From contig CAZFRF010000001.1 in NCBI GenBank assembly GCA_964521295.1, positions 774,738-838,737 on the forward strand: a DNA stretch of 64,000 nucleotides, in the 5' to 3' direction. Each line of letters starts with the position of its first letter. The first letter of the stretch is position 1. Shown piece by piece: positions 4,939 through 13,864 of this stretch. The translations under genes and the position numbers were made by a program. The notes under the pieces were generated by a model. It was not told where the DNA came from, did not search any database, and was given only the letters and a program-made list of their open reading frames with translations. The stretch is from an uncultured Gammaproteobacteria bacterium (GTDB lineage: Bacteria; Patescibacteriota; Microgenomatia; Levybacterales; UBA12049).

Positions 4939-6276
4939 ATGGATTATCTATCAGACTTACATCTTCATTCTAAATACTCCAGAGCTGTATCTCCGAGTAT
5001 GAATTTAGACATAATGGCTAAATTTGCTAGGGAAAAAGGATTAAATCTACTTTCAATTTCAGATTTTACTCACCCTGTTTGGCTAAAAGAAGTCAAGGCC
5101 AAGCTTAAGGAAACGCATGAAGGAATTTATGAGCTAGCGGATGAAATAAGTTTTCCAAAACCAGTATATTTTTTATTTTCTACAGAAATTGCCAGCATTT
5201 ATAAGCAAGGAGGAAAATTAAGAAGAATTCATAATTTAATCTTTGCTCCTAATTTAGAAACTGTTGAAAAAATTAATGCAGAGCTTATTAAAAGAGGAGC
5301 GAATTTAAATGCAGATGGAAGACCAATTATTGGTTTATCTTCAAAAGCATTATTGGAATTAATTTTAGAGATAGATAAGAATTGCATGCTTATCCCATGC
5401 CATGTTTGGACTCCGCATTTTGGAGTATATGGTTCAAAGTCTGGGTTTGATTCTTTAGCTGAGTGCTTTGAAGATTTAGAAAAATATGTTTACGGAATTG
5501 AAACTGGAATTTCTTCAGATCCAGAAATGAACTGGAGGATTAAGGAGCTCGAAAAAAGATCAATTTTGTCATTTTCTGATGCTCATAGTCCAGCCAATAT
5601 GGCAAGAGAAGCAACAACTTTTTCTTTATCTGAGATAACATATTCAAATATTAAAAAGGCAATCGAAAGAAGAGGTGGAGCAGAAAACAGAATCAGTTAT
5701 ACAGTTGAATTTTATCCGGAAGAAGGGAAATATCATTTTTCAGGACATCGAAACTGCGGCGTTAGCTTGTCTCCTTCAGAAATAGTTAATAATGGCAATA
5801 TTTGTCCAGTTTGCAGCAGGGAATTAACCGAGGGTGTTGCAATCAGAATAGATCAGTTAGCTGGTCCAAATTATTATAAAGATTACGAAGAAAAAGAAAG
5901 CCCTCTGGGGATTAAATGGTATACAGATTTAGCTAAACATCATCCGCCATATGTGAAATTAGTAAGGTTGATTCAAATTGTCGCCGAGAGTATGGGTTCA
6001 ACTGTAACTAGTCAGAAAAGTATAAATGTGTATACAAATCTAATGCAAGAATTTGGCGTTGAATTAGATATTTTACTTAAAACGAGCTTAGCTGATATTT
6101 CAAGAGTTGCAGGTTCGAGAATTGCTGAGGGAGTTGGAAAAGTTAGGAGAGGGGAGATTGAAATAAGGCCAGGATTTGATGGTGAATACGGTAAGGTTAA
6201 AATCTTTTCTGACGATAAAACTGGTAAATTAAACAAGGAAAATAATATAAGCTCACAGATTGGCATTGACTTTTAA
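4939..6276 (+). CDS. PHP-domain protein with Zn-finger, endonuclease Q (TIGR00375)-like
   Basis: PHP motif 'DLHLHSKYSRA' at N-terminus, internal 'CPVCS' zinc-finger-like Cys pair; start moved to ATG 4939 (in frame) to avoid overlap with ligase. Confidence 0.5.
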   Translation: MDYLSDLHLHSKYSRAVSPSMNLDIMAKFAREKGLNLLSISDFTHPVWLKEVKAKLKETHEGIYELADEISFPKPVYFLFSTEIASIYKQGGKLRRIHNLIFAPNLETVEKINAELIKRGANLNADGRPIIGLSSKALLELILEIDKNCMLIPCHVWTPHFGVYGSKSGFDSLAECFEDLEKYVYGIETGISSDPEMNWRIKELEKRSILSFSDAHSPANMAREATTFSLSEITYSNIKKAIERRGGAENRISYTVEFYPEEGKYHFSGHRNCGVSLSPSEIVNNGNICPVCSRELTEGVAIRIDQLAGPNYYKDYEEKESPLGIKWYTDLAKHHPPYVKLVRLIQIVAESMGSTVTSQKSINVYTNLMQEFGVELDILLKTSLADISRVAGSRIAEGVGKVRRGEIEIRPGFDGEYGKVKIFSDDKTGKLNKENNISSQIGIDF

Positions 6277-7755: not shown

Positions 7756-8284
7756 GATTTTTTCCAATAAGATCTTTATCGTAATTCTGTTTTTACTTTC
7801 ATTAGTTTTATCTTTTGCTGGATTTTATTTTCAGGATTTCTTTGCTCACTCAAGAGGGTGGGGACTTTTAGGAATTTTTATCCTTAATTTTTTTGCAAGT
7901 GCTACATTTTTTGTTTCAGGGCCGGCTTTTTTAACTATAATTGCAGGAGGCAATTTATATAATCCACTTCTCGTAGCTGTGGTGGCTGCAGTGGCAGCCT
8001 CTTTGGGGGATTTGGTTTCGTTTGCATTGGGCTATTCAGGTAGAAATTTGACATATAAGCATCCGGAGAATCATAAGTGGCTTTTTTTAATAGAAGCACA
8101 TTTTAAAAAATATGGCTTACTTATAGTTTTTCTGTTTGCTTTAATTCCTAATCCTTTTTTCGATGCAATTGGTATAGTGGCTGGTATTTTTGGTTTAAAA
8201 CCGGGAAAATTCTTTGTAATTATGCTCTGTGGTCGTTTTTTGAGATTTATGGTATTAGCTTTTAGTGGCGCTAAATTTATATGA
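7724..8284 (+). CDS. DedA/YqaA (VTT-domain)-like membrane protein
   Basis: Gly-rich re-entrant motif 'VSGPAFLTIIAGGNLYNPLLVAVVAAVAASLGDLVSFALGY' typical of COG1238/DedA proteins. Confidence 0.45.
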   Translation: MKKLQLANLNKIFSNKIFIVILFLLSLVLSFAGFYFQDFFAHSRGWGLLGIFILNFFASATFFVSGPAFLTIIAGGNLYNPLLVAVVAAVAASLGDLVSFALGYSGRNLTYKHPENHKWLFLIEAHFKKYGLLIVFLFALIPNPFFDAIGIVAGIFGLKPGKFFVIMLCGRFLRFMVLAFSGAKFI

Positions 8285-8550
8285 CAGTTAGGATTTTTGT
8301 TTTAGGTTTTGTTCAAGGGGTAGGATTTAGGCGCTTTATTAGAAAAAACGCCCAGAAGTTAGGTATTAAGGGTTGGGTTAGAAATACATCAGATGGAAGA
8401 GTGGAAATAGTTGCTCAAGGAGCTAAAGAGCAAATTGAGGAACTTAAAAAGATTGCAGAGAAGGGAACTATCTTTTCTGATGTAAAAGGAATTGTTGTAG
8501 ATAATTTAGAAGAGTCTGAGGTTTTTGAAGGTTTTGAATTACGATTTTGA
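8281..8550 (+). CDS. acyP: acylphosphatase
   Basis: 'VLGFVQGVGFRRF' and 'GWVRNTSDGRVEIVAQG' acylphosphatase signatures 1 and 2; 89 aa. Confidence 0.8.
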   Translation: MTVRIFVLGFVQGVGFRRFIRKNAQKLGIKGWVRNTSDGRVEIVAQGAKEQIEELKKIAEKGTIFSDVKGIVVDNLEESEVFEGFELRF

Positions 8551-9654
8551 TTTATTAGAGAAAAGATAAGCTGCAATAAAAGTTACAATTGGTACAGCTA
8601 AGAGTAACCCCATGCTTCCTGCAATAGTTTTAATTATCTCATCTGCCAGGATTTCATTGTTAAAGATTACCCAGTAAGGTATTTTACTAGGGTTAAGCGC
8701 AAGGAAAATAAAGATAGCGAACGCACTTCCTGCATAGGCTAAGATAAGGGTATTAACCAAAGAGGCAATGTGTTCTTTTCCAACTTTAAAACCTTTGTCA
8801 AAAAGCGTAACTAAGTCATACTTAGGATTTGCCTCTTTTAGTTCCTGAATGGTTGCTGCTTGAGTCGTAGTTATATCATTCAATGCTCCTAGCGTGCCAA
8901 TGATAATTCCGCTCAAAAATAAACCTTTAATATTGATAAAGCTAGTTTGGCCAAATTGGAGCATAAATGAGTCTTCGTCTCCTAAGCCGGTTATAGAATT
9001 TAAGTTCATTGCAAGAATTGCAAAACCTGCTGTTAAAAATAATGCAATAAGTGTTGAAAAAAGCGCAACTGTTGTTTTCTTAGATACTCCATGCGCTAAA
9101 TAAATCGAAGTTGTAAGAATAAAGATAGAGCCAATTAGAGTATATTGTAGGGGATCATTGCCTTTGAGGATGTTTGGGATTATAAAGACTATAATTGTAC
9201 CAAGACTTACAAGCATGCCTAGGATTGAGCCAAGACCTTTAAGACCAGCTATCAAAACTACGGTTAGGAAAAATATGCCTATGAAGAAAAAGAGCATATT
9301 TAATCTGTAAAAGTCATAAACAGAATATTGAGTTTGTCCATTGGGGTAGGTGGTTTTTGCAACAACTATTGTTTGCCCTTTTTTAATTAATTGATCTTTA
9401 TTTATTTGAGTTTGACTTCCATTTTGAATAACAGTAAATTTTCCAGATTTCGAGCCATCGTTTATTTTTACTCTTAGAGTTTGAAAATAAGCAGTAAAGT
9501 TTTCTGTCTTTTTCTGTCCCTCATCAATGATTTCAACAACATTTGCAATGTAAAAAATTTGTTTTGGCGCTTGAAATTGTTTCTCTTGCGCAAAAGAGGG
9601 TTTGACAGTGATTAAGAGAAGGAGAAGGGCAAGTAGTAGGACTTTTATTTTCAT
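8539..9654 (-). CDS. YibE/F-like polytopic membrane protein with N-terminal signal and periplasmic domain
   Basis: Signal peptide 'MKIKVLLLALLLLLITVKPSFA', ~100-aa soluble domain then 6-7 TM helices; family call from memory. Confidence 0.4.
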   Translation of the reverse strand: MKIKVLLLALLLLLITVKPSFAQEKQFQAPKQIFYIANVVEIIDEGQKKTENFTAYFQTLRVKINDGSKSGKFTVIQNGSQTQINKDQLIKKGQTIVVAKTTYPNGQTQYSVYDFYRLNMLFFFIGIFFLTVVLIAGLKGLGSILGMLVSLGTIIVFIIPNILKGNDPLQYTLIGSIFILTTSIYLAHGVSKKTTVALFSTLIALFLTAGFAILAMNLNSITGLGDEDSFMLQFGQTSFINIKGLFLSGIIIGTLGALNDITTTQAATIQELKEANPKYDLVTLFDKGFKVGKEHIASLVNTLILAYAGSAFAIFIFLALNPSKIPYWVIFNNEILADEIIKTIAGSMGLLLAVPIVTFIAAYLFSNKSKS

Positions 9655-9684
9655 AACCAGATTATATCAGACTAAAACTATCTC

Positions 9685-9733
9685 TTGACAAATGCAAATA
9701 ACTTGCATATAATATGCAAATAATTCGCATTTG
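9685..9733 (+). promoter_or_regulatory. consensus sigma70 promoter (TTGACA-17-TATAAT) embedded in a 45-bp imperfect palindrome (candidate repressor operator)
   Basis: -35 TTGACA 9685-9690, 17-nt spacer, -10 TATAAT 9708-9713; arms 'caaatgcaaataacttgcatat' / 'atatgcaaataattcgcatttg' (19/22 complementary) centred on the -10 and overlapping ATG 9731. Confidence 0.55.
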
Positions 9734-10645
9734 TATATGATTAAAACAGAATTAAGTTCAGTATTAAAAGATACAGCAGGTTTGGCTCTTCAGGGCGGAA
9801 TTTTTGCGCCTGAGACTCCTTCTGGAATAGATCTATCTCCATCTTTACAGGTAATGGAAAAAAGATTAGTTGATGGTTTAAGAGAAAATGGTAGAGCAGT
9901 ATATGGATTAGATAATCCAGAGGGAATGGATTTTACAATGGCATTAGGTCCTTATGCAAAATTAATTTTGGTTTTTAAGCAACGCAGGGAAACTTTACCA
10001 ACTCCCGTGACAGCATTTGGAACTATTGCTCCAGACTCAAATTATTTATCAGGTCAATTAAGATTAGCATTTATGGCAAGATATAGTGGAGGAGCATTTC
10101 AGGTTCCCTGGGAATATGATCCAGATAATACATTAGTTAAGCCTTCTACAATTGATACTTATTTATCTGCGGTTAATGAATTAGGCTCAGTAGGAGACCA
10201 TGAGCCCTCTCGTCCAGTTTCAGTTGCAGATCCTAGGCATTTACTTACGGCAATGAGTGAGTTTAATTTAGGATCAGTTGCATCTTCGCAGATTAACTCT
10301 GTAGATGTAACTCAAAGGCCACATGTAGGCGATGTGTGGGAAGCGAATCGTGGAATGTTTCCAATTATTTCAGCTCAAGAAATGGGTAATTTAGAAAACG
10401 ATTTAGTATGGGCGCCATTTACAGTTACAAAAAAATATTCTAGATCTGATAGTTTGCCATTTGGAGTCATGTTAAAACCAGAAAATCTTGATTTAGAAGC
10501 ATTAGGTAGGGGAAGAATTGTACCAGCTAAAGCAAATATTCCTGGTTCTTTGGAGATGATTCAGCAATTAGGTTTTGCAACTCTTCTTACCAAGGGCAAT
10601 GCCGTTGATAATTTTAAAAGAATCCTAGAAAGGAGAGTTGTTTAA
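9731..10645 (+). CDS. hypothetical protein (304 aa), Ala/Gly/Pro-rich, no family recognised
   Basis: First gene of cassette; composition and GC (~38-40%) above flanking genes; acidic, Lys-poor. Confidence 0.55.
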   Translation: MYMIKTELSSVLKDTAGLALQGGIFAPETPSGIDLSPSLQVMEKRLVDGLRENGRAVYGLDNPEGMDFTMALGPYAKLILVFKQRRETLPTPVTAFGTIAPDSNYLSGQLRLAFMARYSGGAFQVPWEYDPDNTLVKPSTIDTYLSAVNELGSVGDHEPSRPVSVADPRHLLTAMSEFNLGSVASSQINSVDVTQRPHVGDVWEANRGMFPIISAQEMGNLENDLVWAPFTVTKKYSRSDSLPFGVMLKPENLDLEALGRGRIVPAKANIPGSLEMIQQLGFATLLTKGNAVDNFKRILERRVV

Positions 10646-11130
10646 TGATGCCTTATGTTGAGGCTTTTACTCCTCAGAAAAGAATTGAACCAATTGTTCC
10701 CCAGGCTACTCAATCAGAATGGGAGCTTGGTGGAGCCGTTTTTCAGTTTGGCTCTATGGAGGAAATGCTTTCTGCCGCTCAACAGCCAATAGTAGAAGTA
10801 GGAGAGGTGAAATTAGAGCCTTCTTTAAATATTGAGGATGATTTCTCCCGTGCTCGTAGAATAATTAATGCAAATTTAGGCGTCTTTACTCAATTGCAAA
10901 GTTCAATTATGATGCGTGCTCAACAATTACAGATTGCTTGTCATCCTCATAATTCATCAATGACAACTATGACATCTCCAATGAGTAATTTAGGAAACGG
11001 TGAATTTGCTAGCGGCGCATTCCTAGGAAATTTAGGAGGAGAAAAACAAACTCATTCTACTGAGCAGCATGGTCACTGTAGTTCATGCGGAGCAGATTTA
11101 AAAGGTGGAAAATGTCCAAAATGTTCATAA
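10645..11130 (+). CDS. hypothetical protein (161 aa) with C-terminal zinc-ribbon
   Basis: Start overlaps upstream stop (ATGATG/TAATG coupling); C-terminus 'CSSCGADLKGGKCPKCS'. Confidence 0.5.
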   Translation: MMPYVEAFTPQKRIEPIVPQATQSEWELGGAVFQFGSMEEMLSAAQQPIVEVGEVKLEPSLNIEDDFSRARRIINANLGVFTQLQSSIMMRAQQLQIACHPHNSSMTTMTSPMSNLGNGEFASGAFLGNLGGEKQTHSTEQHGHCSSCGADLKGGKCPKCS

Positions 11131-11143
11131 AGGAGGTGATTAA

Positions 11144-11308
11144 GTGAAATTTTACAATGTCAAAACAAGACAATCCGTTGAAATTGATGACTCTAAAGTC
11201 CAGGTCATAACAATGAAAAACGGAAAGTTAGCAGCTAAAGCTGAAGATAATGGAATTGGTTTATTCAAAATATTAAGCAGAGAAGACGCTGCAAGACTCA
11301 ACAAGTAA
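11144..11308 (+). CDS. unannotated 54-aa protein (GTG start), SH3-barrel/Sul7d-like pattern
   Basis: Perfect SD 'AAGGAGGTGA' then GTG at 11144; ORF VKFYNVKTRQSVEIDDSKVQVITMKNGKLAAKAEDNGIGLFKILSREDAARLNK*; followed by terminator; not in supplied ORF track (track has an antisense ORF 11152..11376 instead). Confidence 0.45.
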   Translation: MKFYNVKTRQSVEIDDSKVQVITMKNGKLAAKAEDNGIGLFKILSREDAARLNK

Positions 11309-11330
11309 TTGATCTGTATTTTACGCAATA

Positions 11331-11362
11331 CATGGGAGACCTTTGGTCTCCCATGGTGTTTG
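11331..11362 (+). terminator. rho-independent terminator 'catgggagacc-tttg-ggtctcccatg' + T-rich tail
   Basis: 11-bp perfect GC-rich stem 11331-11355 followed by 'gtgtttgt'. Confidence 0.65.
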
Positions 11363-11388
11363 TAAAAAGTTTGCATTAAATTTACAAT

Positions 11389-11820
11389 ATGATAATATCA
11401 GCTAGAATGAAAAATATTAAAGATTTAGGAATTAAATCAACTAACTCTAGAGTTGCAGTTTTAAACTTTTTAGAAAAAGCAGAGAAGCCTTACGATGTCC
11501 AGGCAATAATTGAATATTTAAGAGCTTCAGGATTGTCAACTGATCAAGCAACTGTTTATAGAATTTTAGACCTATTTTATAAAAAGGGAATAGTACAAAA
11601 AATTGAATTAGGAGAAGGTAAGTACAGATATGAAAAAACCCAAGCTCATCATCATCACTTAATCTGTACTAATTGTGGAAGCATAGAGGATGTAAGTGGG
11701 GATTTCGTTGCTGATATAGAAGAAAATATAAAAAAGAATAAGGGATTTGAAGTTAAAAGTCATTCATTGGAATTTTTTGGATTATGTAAAAATTGTCAAT
11801 CTCATTCTTTATCTTCGTAA
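11389..11820 (+). CDS. Fur-family metal-responsive transcriptional regulator (Fur/Zur/PerR)
   Basis: wHTH N-domain, 'HHHHLICTNCGSIEDV' and C-terminal 'CKNC' metal sites. Confidence 0.8.
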   Translation: MIISARMKNIKDLGIKSTNSRVAVLNFLEKAEKPYDVQAIIEYLRASGLSTDQATVYRILDLFYKKGIVQKIELGEGKYRYEKTQAHHHHLICTNCGSIEDVSGDFVADIEENIKKNKGFEVKSHSLEFFGLCKNCQSHSLSS

Positions 11821-11963
11821 CTGCAATTTTTTAATTTATATTTTAGCTTAAAATTTTACCCTCAAAACACATATAAGAATAAAAGAGATTTTGTTTGATT
11901 TTAGGTTTTAATTATTTGGGGGATATAACAGTTTCGGTGTTAATCTCTCTTCTTGAGCATTAA

Positions 11964-12752
11964 TTATTCTTTTAAAGCTGCTTCTATTTGTGCTTTGATT
12001 TGAGAGTAGGGAACTGCCCCGGTAATTTGAACTCCATTGACAAAGGTTGCTGGTGTTCCTGTTACTCCTGCGGCCTGTCCTTCTGATAAGTCTTTATCAA
12101 TGTTTGCTTGATATTTCCTATTTGTTAAGCAACTGTTAAAGCTAGTAGTATCCATGCCTAAGGTTCCTGCTACTTGAGTTAATTTATCAACGGTATACAT
12201 AGATATATCGCTTTCTGGTGGTTGATTTTCATAGAAGTATTTATGCATTTCCCAGAATTTACCTTGTTCGTTTGCACATTCCGCTGCGTTAGCTGCGACT
12301 ACAGAAGGATCACCTAAGAAAGCAAATTGTCTAAAATATAAGACTGCTTTTCCTGCATCAACATACTCTTTAATAAATTGTTGCTCTGATTCGGTATATA
12401 GTTGTTCGCAGAATGGACATCTGAAATCTGCAAATACAATAATTTTAACTTTAGCATTTGGATCTCCCTTGGCTGGTAGGTGACCGACTGCAACATCAAC
12501 TTTAGCGGCTGGAGCTTGTTGTTCTCCAGAGCCATCATCGAGAGCAGTTGGAGCTGTATTTGTTCCTAGGTTACCGGTTCCCTTTTCTAAATATTGAACT
12601 TTAGTAATTAATACTCCAAGTAAAAAAGCAGCGATAACTAATAGTACAGCGAGTATCGGTGTGTAGTTTTTGGGCCTATAAGAAAGAGCAGAGGATGCAG
12701 CTACTGTTGTAGTTTTTTTGATTGATTTGAGTATAGATTTGCCCTTTGGCAT
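11964..12752 (-). CDS. membrane-anchored DsbA-like thiol:disulfide oxidoreductase
   Basis: N-terminal TM, thioredoxin fold with 'FRCPFCEQ' CxxC active site. Confidence 0.75.
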   Translation of the reverse strand: MPKGKSILKSIKKTTTVAASSALSYRPKNYTPILAVLLVIAAFLLGVLITKVQYLEKGTGNLGTNTAPTALDDGSGEQQAPAAKVDVAVGHLPAKGDPNAKVKIIVFADFRCPFCEQLYTESEQQFIKEYVDAGKAVLYFRQFAFLGDPSVVAANAAECANEQGKFWEMHKYFYENQPPESDISMYTVDKLTQVAGTLGMDTTSFNSCLTNRKYQANIDKDLSEGQAAGVTGTPATFVNGVQITGAVPYSQIKAQIEAALKE

Positions 12753-12826
12753 ACAAGCATTTTATTTTTTTTGCAAACTCGTGTCAATAGGAGAAACCAC
12801 TATACGAAAGGTAAGTAAGGAATTGT

Positions 12827-12853
12827 TTGACAACGCTTGGTTTATCGTATAAT
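12827..12853 (+). promoter_or_regulatory. putative promoter TTGACA-15-TATAAT, -10 located 9 nt from ATG 12863
   Basis: TTGACA 12827-12832, TATAAT 12848-12853. Confidence 0.35.
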
Positions 12854-12862
12854 CTCAAACTA

Positions 12863-13864
12863 ATGAACAAAGTTGTCTTTTTTGAAATGGAGTCATGGGA
12901 AGAGGAGTATGTTAAAAAGATTCTTAATCTGGAAAATTCCGTATCTACTTCTGAAAAATTAACTTTAGCCAACGTGTCGAATTTTACCGAGGCAGAGGCA
13001 ATATCAATCTTTATCTATTCCGAAATTACCAAAGAATTAATAGATAGTTTGCCTAATCTAAAGTTTATTACTACTAGATCAATGGGCTATGACCACATAG
13101 ATATTAATTATTGCAAAGAGAAGGGAATTAAAGTTGCTTATGTTCCTACTTATGGATCACATACAGTTGCAGAACATACATTTGCTTTAATTTTGGCTAT
13201 TTCACGAAAAATTGTATCTTCAGTTGAAAGAGCCAGAAGTGGAGAATTCGGCAATGCAGGACTTGAAGGCTTTGATTTATTTGGTAAAACAATTGGTTTG
13301 ATTGGTACTGGTCATATTGGTAAAAACGTAGCTAGTCTTGCTCTAGCTTTTGGAATGAAGGTTCTAGCTTACAGTAGGCATGAAGACGAGGAGCTAAAAG
13401 CAAAAGGAGTTAACTTTGTTTCGCTGGATGAGCTATTAACGTCTTCTGATATTGTTTCCTTGCATCTTCCTCACACTAAAGAAACAGAGCACATTATCAA
13501 TATGGATTTATTATCTAAGTTTAAAAAAGGCGCTGTCTTAATTAATACAGCTAGAGGTGCTTTAGTTGAAACTGCTGCAATAGCGGAAGGATTAGAGAAG
13601 GGAATCTTTGCAGGGGTTGGTCTAGATGTATTAGAAGAAGAAGCAGATTTGCGAGAAGAAAGAGAGCTTTTGTCATCTGAATATCTTGCTAAAGTTGATT
13701 TAAAAACCCAACTATTAAATCATGTTTTGCTTACACAACAGGATGTAATTATTACTCCCCACAATGCATTTAATAGTAGAGAAGCCTTGCAAGAAATATT
13801 AGAAACTACAATTTCTAATGTAAAAGGATATTTGCAGGGCAATCTAATCAATATTATTGAATAA
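12863..13864 (+). CDS. D-isomer-specific 2-hydroxyacid dehydrogenase (D-lactate/phosphoglycerate DH family)
   Basis: NAD-binding 'GLIGTGHIGKNVA', catalytic R/E/H blocks ('TARGALV', 'ITPHNAFNS'); start at internal ATG 12863. Confidence 0.85.
   Translation: MNKVVFFEMESWEEEYVKKILNLENSVSTSEKLTLANVSNFTEAEAISIFIYSEITKELIDSLPNLKFITTRSMGYDHIDINYCKEKGIKVAYVPTYGSHTVAEHTFALILAISRKIVSSVERARSGEFGNAGLEGFDLFGKTIGLIGTGHIGKNVASLALAFGMKVLAYSRHEDEELKAKGVNFVSLDELLTSSDIVSLHLPHTKETEHIINMDLLSKFKKGAVLINTARGALVETAAIAEGLEKGIFAGVGLDVLEEEADLREERELLSSEYLAKVDLKTQLLNHVLLTQQDVIITPHNAFNSREALQEILETTISNVKGYLQGNLINIIE

Follow-up and report, generated by a model that had tools for sequence, protein, structure and literature searches.

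The window analysed here is a stretch of 64,000 nucleotides (nt) of DNA. At positions 11144 to 11308 of its plus strand lies a gene of 54 codons, which is the third gene of an operon and is preceded by open reading frames (ORFs) for proteins of 304 and 161 amino acids (aa). The encoded protein is small and basic, with an isoelectric point (pI) of 9.7. Tandem operator boxes are found at the promoter of the operon, and a gene for a Fur-family regulator follows downstream. The protein descends from the zinc-ribbon proteins of DUF5679 and has lost all zinc ligands, and its genomic context points to control by metal (zinc) limitation, a link that a first-pass annotation of the same sequence had missed.

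A conserved gene beneath a longer antisense reading frame

The first-pass annotation had reported the ORF as a missed gene with a GTG start, a Shine–Dalgarno (SD) sequence and a downstream terminator, and the locus was found to be as described. The features concerned are the following.

11130..11139, plus strand: SD sequence AAGGAGGTGA of the 54-aa gene, 4 nt before the GTG and overlapping the stop codon of the 161-aa ORF
11144..11308, plus strand: 54-aa gene with GTG start, Cys-less (C−) homolog of the DUF5679 zinc-ribbon proteins
11152..11376, minus strand: antisense ORF of 74 aa from the ORF listing, longer than the 54-aa gene
11331..11355, plus strand: terminator-like hairpin of the intrinsic type with an 11-bp stem, the 5′ arm of which opens with the last 3 nt of the antisense element described below

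Because the antisense ORF is longer, it masks the 54-aa gene in a longest-ORF track and is displayed in its place, as had been pointed out.

Conservation and purifying selection show the 54-codon ORF to be a genuine gene in bacteria of the candidate phyla radiation (CPR). A protein search returned 76 cluster representatives with E-values from 2e-25 to 3e-6, nearly all of 53–58 aa, and a search with the family profile among 1.8 billion representatives retrieved 123, including proteins with four Cys. In the GTDB species genomes, 121 loci with a homolog were found. Where the names of carriers are informative, they point to Levyibacteriota, Daviesbacteria, Roizmanbacteria and 'Patescibacteria group', i.e., the Microgenomates part of the CPR. 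The family alignment contains 9 invariant and 20 nearly invariant positions, and both the SD sequence and the MKFYNVK start are kept across homologous loci. Compared to the closest relative (L007), the gene shows 12 synonymous and 3 non-synonymous differences, corresponding to a ratio of non-synonymous to synonymous rates (dN/dS) of 0.05. In all of 12 homolog comparisons, the proportion of synonymous differences (pS, 0.38–0.97) far exceeds that of non-synonymous differences (pN, 0.02–0.26), which is the pattern that had been named beforehand as a check on the ORF. Both alternative sense frames contain 2–10 stops in each of the 12 homologs compared, and each antisense frame is broken in most of them (0–7 stops).

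The view that there is no gene at all, and that the reading frame is due to the longer antisense ORF or to chance, can draw on the length of that antisense ORF. It is already refuted by conservation, since the sense frame has a dN/dS of 0.05, the frame of the 74-aa ORF carries 2–3 stops in 6 of the 12 homologs, and SD and start are conserved in about 120 loci; its probability is next to nil.

Several genomes have two Cys-less copies, arranged in tandem or approximately 1 kb apart. Examples are found in L016 (4927–5088, minus strand, and 6001–6159, plus strand), in L053 (5760–5948 and 5965–6180) and in L064/L065. The C− branch itself has therefore been duplicated repeatedly.

Kinship with DUF5679 zinc ribbons and the predicted fold

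When the single protein was used to search Pfam, NCBIfam and the PDB sequences, nothing but noise below threshold was returned. The gathering threshold of PF18930 (DUF5679) is not reached by the family either: the window protein has no match, and matches occur in 2 of the 74 members with a best E-value of 0.098. Ybfg_C, a recurrent weak Pfam match (34 of the 74 members, best E-value 0.0026), lies far under its 27-bit cut-off and was rejected as noise. The proteins with four Cys that the family profile retrieved, by contrast, score 35–64 bits on PF18930 (cut-off 27). In an hhalign comparison, the C− family (A1) and the Cys-containing (C+) proteins (A2) align over 55 columns with a probability of 99.3% and an E-value of 7e-21.

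In this alignment, N5 and T8 stand opposite the first CxxC, with Y-C-V-K-C being replaced by Y-N-V-K-T, and the second knuckle, C-P-x-C-G, has become x-x-N-G and is 2 residues shorter. The core V-T-M-K-N-G-[KR]-x-A and the motif G-x-x-[LM]-F-[KR]-I are retained. The window protein contains no Cys, the 74 members together contain one, and the median member has 0 Cys and 0 His. Judged by these alignments, the 54-aa protein is a Cys-less branch of the DUF5679 zinc-ribbon superfamily in which all four zinc ligands have been lost. Because the defining features of DUF5679 (the four Cys and the Pfam threshold) fail despite this descent, the family is best described as a Cys-less sister family.

DUF5679 (PF18930) consists of CxxC...CxxC proteins of bacteria, archaea and some viruses, and its superfamily counts more than 6,400 cluster representatives at E ≤ 0.001. 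The C− family resembles these proteins in size, charge and predicted strand order, and the motifs [FY]-x-V-K, V-T-M-K-N-G-[KR]-x-A and G-x-x-[LM]-[FY]-[KR]-I are common to both forms. It differs from them by the missing Cys, the shortened second knuckle and a C-terminal helix SKEDAARL. Moreover, the C− gene lies in a putative metal-limitation regulon, whereas the C+ genes do not.

The first-pass annotation had likened the sequence to Sul7d/Sac7d. In the AF2 model of the 54-aa protein, which is confident and has a predicted local distance difference test score (pLDDT) of 92.3, strands span residues 2–5, 10–13, 20–23, 29–35 and 38–43 and a helix spans residues 46–53. This layout of a β-hairpin, a three-stranded sheet and a C-terminal helix follows the element order of the Sul7d type. 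In a Foldseek search against the PDB, Sac7d/Sso7d or engineered derivatives make up most of the top 20 matches with full-length coverage, at sub-significant scores (template modelling score 0.46–0.53, probability up to 0.90, E-value 0.1–0.5). The AF2 model of a Cys-containing relative has the same strand order (pLDDT of about 80 in the domain), and its best structural match in the PDB is Cren7, with an E-value of 0.52.

While the layout was thus recovered in the model, the claimed relationship was not recovered in sequence. Comparison by hhalign of the family with reference sequences of Sac7d and Cren7 gave probabilities of 0.25% and 0.6%, respectively. PF02294 (Sul7d) and PF11520 (Cren7) match none of the 74 members at E ≤ 10, and when the PDB was searched with the family profile at the same limit, chains of Sac7d, Sso7d and Cren7 were absent from the results. 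The residue spacing that was said to mirror the crenarchaeal 7-kDa proteins does not hold up, as several of the matched residues (E34, D35) are not conserved in the family. Sac7d binds the minor groove of DNA with intercalating residues Trp24, Val26 and Met29 on its triple-stranded sheet. Trp occurs in none of the 74 family members, in which strand 3 reads V-x-V-[VI]-T-M-K-N-G.

Taken together, the models suggest a likeness to Sac7d and Cren7 that would hold for the whole DUF5679 fold, below significance; homology to Sul7d or membership in the Sul7d family is not supported. The C− protein resembles Sul7d/Sac7d (PF02294) and Cren7 (PF11520), its best structural neighbours in the PDB, in a mass of approximately 6–7 kDa, in basic charge and in the predicted hairpin and three-stranded sheet, with a C-terminal helix as in Sul7d. 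It differs in the absence of sequence homology, in lineage and in genomic context. A role in nucleic-acid binding is plausible; C− and C+ forms alike have a pI of 9.7, and some relatives have long basic tails.

Operator boxes, zinc genes and Cys-containing paralogs

The operon and its surroundings comprise the following further features.

8539..9654, minus strand: gene of a YibE/F-family membrane protein, diverging from the operator region, 44–48% identical to PF07907 (YibE_F) neighbours in other loci
9685..9713, plus strand: operon promoter TTGACA-17-TATAAT, sigma-70 type, 12/12 consensus
9692..9708: operator box 1, ATGCAAATAACTTGCAT, an 8-1-8 palindrome of Fur-family type with 0 mismatches, in the promoter spacer
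9714..9730: operator box 2, ATGCAAATAATTCGCAT, with 1 mismatch, directly after the −10 hexamer
9731..10645, plus strand: operon gene 1, 304-aa protein, family not recognised; probable ATG at 9737; homologs at the same position in L007 (89%) and L039 (31%)
10645..11130, plus strand: operon gene 2, 161-aa protein, family not recognised; C-terminus HGHCSSCGADLKGGKCPKCS (CxxC-x8-CxxC), zinc-ribbon matches sub-threshold only
11360..11376: weaker box resembling an operator, TTGTAAAAAGTTTGCAT; it overlaps a promoter-like site (11360–11388) before the Fur-family gene at the −35 hexamer and spacer
11389..11820, plus strand: Fur-family regulator (putative Zur), PF01475, E-value 5e-29, following the terminator

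The consensus of the boxes is an 8-1-8 palindrome, ATGCAACT-N-AGTTGCAT, which is of the Fur-family 7-1-7 type. Box 1 is the sole perfect match in the window, and boxes 1 and 2 are the sole matches with at most one mismatch. The weaker box at 11360–11376 has a perfect core match in the close relative L007. In related genomes the same box also precedes the Fur-family genes themselves. Tandem boxes, 22–24 nt apart, occur in L007, L008, L009, L011, L012, L014, L016, L018, L021 and L039 and often overlap consensus promoters (loci examined, L007–L043). Genes found behind the box encode Fur-family, YibE/F, CbiA-like/short-chain-dehydrogenase, nicotianamine-synthase-like and C− proteins. The box is a candidate Zur-type operator of Microgenomates.

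The genomic context was compared among three groups of loci. A gene was counted as zinc-related if it encodes Fur, ZnuA, ZnuB, ZIP, YibE/F or a nicotianamine-synthase-like protein and lies within 3 kb; boxes were counted with at most one mismatch within 150 nt upstream of the start codon.

C− gene, CPR: 34 loci; zinc-related 22; Fur-family within 3 kb 20; box 13 (0.33 expected from background)
C− homolog, marine group III archaea: 10 loci; zinc-related 10 (znuA-x-znuC-znuB); Fur-family 0; box 0
Cys-less relatives, SAR202/Chloroflexota and others: 28 loci; zinc-related 4; Fur-family 1; box 1

Neighbours of the C− gene are genes for Fur, ZIP, ZnuABC, nicotianamine-synthase-like proteins and YibE/F. 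In L003/L022 the C− gene stands between znuA and znuCB, and the ZnuA of L003 has a long loop rich in His, Asp and Glu. Such a loop is typical of zinc-specific ZnuA. A YibE/F gene lies within 3 kb of the C− gene in 11 of the 34 CPR loci, including a copy at 5191–6255 in L001. YibE/F proteins are poorly characterised, and the repeated occurrence of their genes beside the C− gene and downstream of the same kind of operator hints at a function in metal (zinc) homeostasis.

The Cys-containing paralogs have a different context. In the marine group III archaea (Poseidoniales; L044–L046, L049–L052, L055, L056 and L059), the Cys-less homolog lies within znuA-x-znuC-znuB in 10 of 10 loci, and a paralog with four Cys (MEGYCVKCKAKREI...) is found 2–3.7 kb downstream on the same contig and strand, again in 10 of 10. 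In the CPR, C+ genes have a conserved neighbourhood unrelated to that of the C− gene, with genes for SecD (SecDF), a 191-aa protein resembling a winged helix-turn-helix protein, DUF3048 and DUF4446 all on one strand (L093, L095–L098, L102–L181). Directly upstream of the C+ gene and in the same direction, 32 of 51 loci have a gene for a protein of about 97 aa with a basic N-terminus and a C-terminal transmembrane helix. None of the CPR C+ genes lies beside zinc genes or a C− gene, the box occurs within 520 nt upstream of 1 of 68 of them, and the C− gene is absent from 80 metagenomic C+ loci. C+ genes are documented in the same candidate phyla, i.e., Levyibacteriota, Gottesmanbacteria and Woesebacteria. 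This contrast in context between C− and C+ genes is the signature of Zur-controlled zinc-independent paralogs.

Some minor points concern the operon and its neighbours. The 304-aa protein has no Pfam or NCBIfam match, and a search of positions 8000–13000 against Rfam at E ≤ 1 gave none. A His-rich stretch precedes CxxC-x8-CxxC in the 161-aa protein, an unexpected ending for a protein from a zinc-starvation operon; L021 encodes a similar C-terminus beside its fur gene. The ATG at 11389 of the Fur-family ORF falls inside its own predicted promoter (−10 hexamer TACAAT at 11383–11388 or TAGAAT at 11403–11408); judging from the sequence, the real start of this gene is probably the ATG at 11407 (MKNIKD...). 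In other Microgenomates (L006/L008, 3185–4986; L041; L043), the C− gene stands third after genes for a CbiA/AAA_31-type P-loop protein and a short-chain dehydrogenase, not after the 304/161-aa pair. Upstream of this type of operon, too, are tandem boxes, together with a TTTACRCAA motif, and the leader contains a hairpin.

The antisense element and a proposed zinc-sparing switch

Directly after the stop codon of the 54-aa gene, a short element is found that is complementary to the start of the C+ genes.

11309..11333, plus strand: 25-nt element TTGATCTGTATTTTACGCAATACAT, reverse complement of the M-Y-C-V-K-C-R-x-K codons at the 5′ end of CPR C+ genes

Read on the opposite strand, the element is ATG TAT TGC GTA AAA TAC AGA TCA A ('MYCVK...'), and it is identical in 23 of 25 nt to codons 4–12 of a Levyibacteriota C+ gene (L098, 5010–5034). 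Among the C+ proteins with a MYC..C motif that were retrieved with a CPR (Patescibacteria) query, 111 of 118 have MYCVKCRAK exactly. Sixteen distinct CPR loci have the element beside the C− gene. Its usual place is between the stop codon and the terminator, and in L001, L023, L033 and L035 it lies between the box-bearing promoter and the SD sequence; in either position it would therefore always be on the C− transcript. Sites include 5170–5212 in L003 and L006, 6202–6244 in L010, 6203–6245 in L011, 4996–5038 in L018, about 4896–4936 in L001 and 4557–4599 in L033. Differences from locus to locus fall mainly in third codon positions of the reverse frame, and the variants (TAT/TAC, TGT/TGC, GTA/GTT, AAA/AAG) are synonymous alternatives of real C+ genes. 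The distal part of the element is taken up in many loci by a hairpin (AAATGCC-loop-GGCATTT), so that UACACAAUACAU stays single-stranded before the terminator.

Predicted duplexes of the window element have the following energies.

With the C+ start region of L098 (a comparison across genomes): −32.6 kcal/mol
With its own C− start region: −10.4 kcal/mol
Shuffled elements: −11.1 ± 2.7 kcal/mol

Two other explanations of the element were rejected. Read as a gene or pseudogene on the minus strand ('MYCVKC...'), its frames diverge after 6–9 codons with the length of the loop, codon 6 is a stop in L016, and a start codon is missing from several loci. A role as Zur operator was ruled out, as the true palindromic box was found separately. 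There are about even odds that the induced C− transcript, or a fragment of its 3′ untranslated region (UTR), pairs with C+ mRNA in the first dozen codons and lowers its translation.

RyhB, FsrA and PrrF are metal-sparing base-pairing RNAs. The predicted system resembles these and small RNAs derived from 3′ UTRs in having a metalloregulator-controlled transcript in which a hairpin and a terminator border a single-stranded seed, and in the complementarity of this seed to the region where translation starts on the mRNA of a protein that consumes metal. It differs in the metal, which would be zinc, in having a single paralog as target, in the linkage of the seed to the replacement gene (in the 3′ or 5′ UTR), and in being predicted here from sequence. 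No chaperone is known for it.

Overall, the analysis points, with a probability of roughly 0.7, to a zinc-independent C− paralog of DUF5679 that is induced on zinc limitation as a zinc-free stand-in. We infer that the Fur-family protein is Zur, that the metal is zinc, that the gene is induced on limitation and that its product substitutes for the C+ protein. When zinc is ample, Zur would bind the boxes and keep the operon off. When zinc is scarce, the operon would be transcribed and the zinc-free protein made, which would take over the probably nucleic-acid-binding job of the zinc-requiring DUF5679 paralog. As a second layer, the 25 nt after the stop codon, antisense to C+ codons 4–12, may pair with the C+ mRNA near its start and so lower synthesis of the zinc-consuming paralog. 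A more far-reaching proposal is that of an RNA-coupled paralog switch, in which one Zur-released transcript supplies the zinc-free twin and silences the zinc consumer, with DUF5679, a superfamily of thousands of members in CPR, Chloroflexota, archaea and viruses, being an abundant Sac7d/Cren7-like nucleic-acid binder worth sparing zinc for. In this full form the proposal is tentative, and the odds are somewhat against it.

A number of observations weigh against the zinc-sparing interpretation. No C+ gene was found by tblastn and hmmsearch in the window or in the CPR C− loci (12 kb each). In 12 of the 34 CPR loci a zinc-related gene is absent within 3 kb, and the Cys-less relatives of SAR202/Chloroflexota mostly lack zinc context (4 of 28), so loss of the Cys is not always tied to a metal regulon. 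Zinc is the presumed metal: the cargo of ZnuA-like, ABC-3 and ZIP transporters can also be Mn or Fe, and iron could in principle occupy a Cys4 site. When the Fur-family regulator was sub-typed as Zur, Fur or PerR with NCBIfam, all scores remained under the cut-offs. The antisense element is missing from about half of the CPR loci, and the support for its hairpin is modest (81% of cells paired, covariation score above that of 495 of 500 shuffles). Finally, the literature found on DUF5679 consists of passing mentions, with no paper on its function.

Several alternatives give the C− protein another role. It might itself be the switch, binding the C+ mRNA (or its own) and repressing translation without any functional replacement. 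L31p of E. coli indeed represses translation of l31 via an mRNA hairpin (PMC9825181), the C− protein is likewise small and basic, and a conserved RNA element adjoins its gene. Yet direct base pairing at −32.6 kcal/mol is a simpler account of the adjacent element, while the strong purifying selection over the whole fold, surfaces shared with C+ proteins included, fits functional replacement; this alternative is considered unlikely. It is rather improbable, too, that the protein is a bacterial chromatin protein of the Sul7d/Sac7d or Cren7 type, related or convergent, with an SH3-like barrel that binds and bends double-stranded DNA constitutively. The structural neighbours that suggest it all score below significance, the hhalign probabilities are 0.25% and 0.6% without any profile matches, and the family lacks Trp and hence the Trp of the Sac7d intercalating wedge. 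In addition, the clear homologs are zinc ribbons, and a constitutive role would leave the tight link to metal-uptake genes and operator boxes unexplained.

In a further alternative, the protein would be an accessory factor of metal uptake, either a cytoplasmic metallochaperone or a regulator of the ZnuABC, ZIP or YibE/F transporters. The placement of the gene in L003/L022 and in all 10 loci of marine group III, with znuA on one side and znuCB on the other, would fit this, as would its position next to YibE/F in L001. However, there is no Cys, His or acidic cluster to bind metal (the median member has none), the protein has neither a signal peptide nor a transmembrane segment, and its clear origin is a structural zinc ribbon with its ligands lost, which makes such a role very improbable.

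The zinc-sparing interpretation has well-described counterparts. Makarova et al. in 2001 and Panina et al. in 2003 reportedly described zinc-independent (C−) paralogs of the ribosomal proteins L31, L33, L36, S14 and S18. Zur-controlled zinc-independent paralogs are established and include DksA copies without the C4 finger, i.e., DksA2 (PMC2770081), and such paralogs of zinc-ribbon ribosomal proteins are known as well (PMC5912738). As in these cases, a Cys-less copy of a Cys4 zinc ribbon stands behind a Fur-family operator near zinc-uptake genes and the Cys-containing copy is found at a housekeeping locus, with both copies in one genome in the marine group III loci. The differences are that the 54-aa protein is no known ribosomal protein or DksA, that the carriers are CPR bacteria and archaea, and that the operator, ATGCAACT-N-AGTTGCAT, is a new 8-1-8 sequence with predicted regulation. 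As in the L31p/L31 switch of E. coli (PMC9825181), the locus of the zinc-free paralog would down-regulate the zinc-binding paralog post-transcriptionally at the 5′ region of its mRNA. In E. coli, repression is exerted by the L31p protein on a 5′-UTR hairpin, whereas here the candidate is a 25–27-nt antisense stretch on the C− mRNA. New are the protein family (non-ribosomal as far as known), the lineages (CPR and marine group III archaea; no antisense element was seen in the loci of the latter), the operator sequence and the possible RNA coupling.

The zinc-sparing interpretation would provide a first functional handle on DUF5679, which is a very large family. The presence of a metal-free spare under a zinc-starvation operator means that the zinc form is probably made in amounts, or for a task, that matters. 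The C+/C− principle of zinc sparing would be extended past ribosomal proteins and DksA, and into marine group III archaea and the little-understood CPR bacteria. For Microgenomates, a candidate Zur operator would become available, together with a candidate regulon comprising YibE/F, ZIP, ZnuABC, a nicotianamine-synthase-like gene and several proteins without recognised family. If the antisense element acts as proposed, it would link a replacement gene, in a compact and novel manner, with the silencing of the gene whose place it takes.

The modelled fold likeness to Sac7d/Cren7 may be a lead of interest for the whole DUF5679 family. Some DUF5679-like proteins, with or without Cys (P0101, P0120, P0137 and P0143), carry long tails rich in Lys/Arg/Ser or Ala/Lys, as do histone H1 and viral DNA-binding proteins. 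The closest C+ proteins with the helix (P0117 and P0145) lie on contigs that are short or virus-like, with uninformative context. In L089, a Cys-containing relative is found on a contig with a UCH protease gene and is thus possibly viral.

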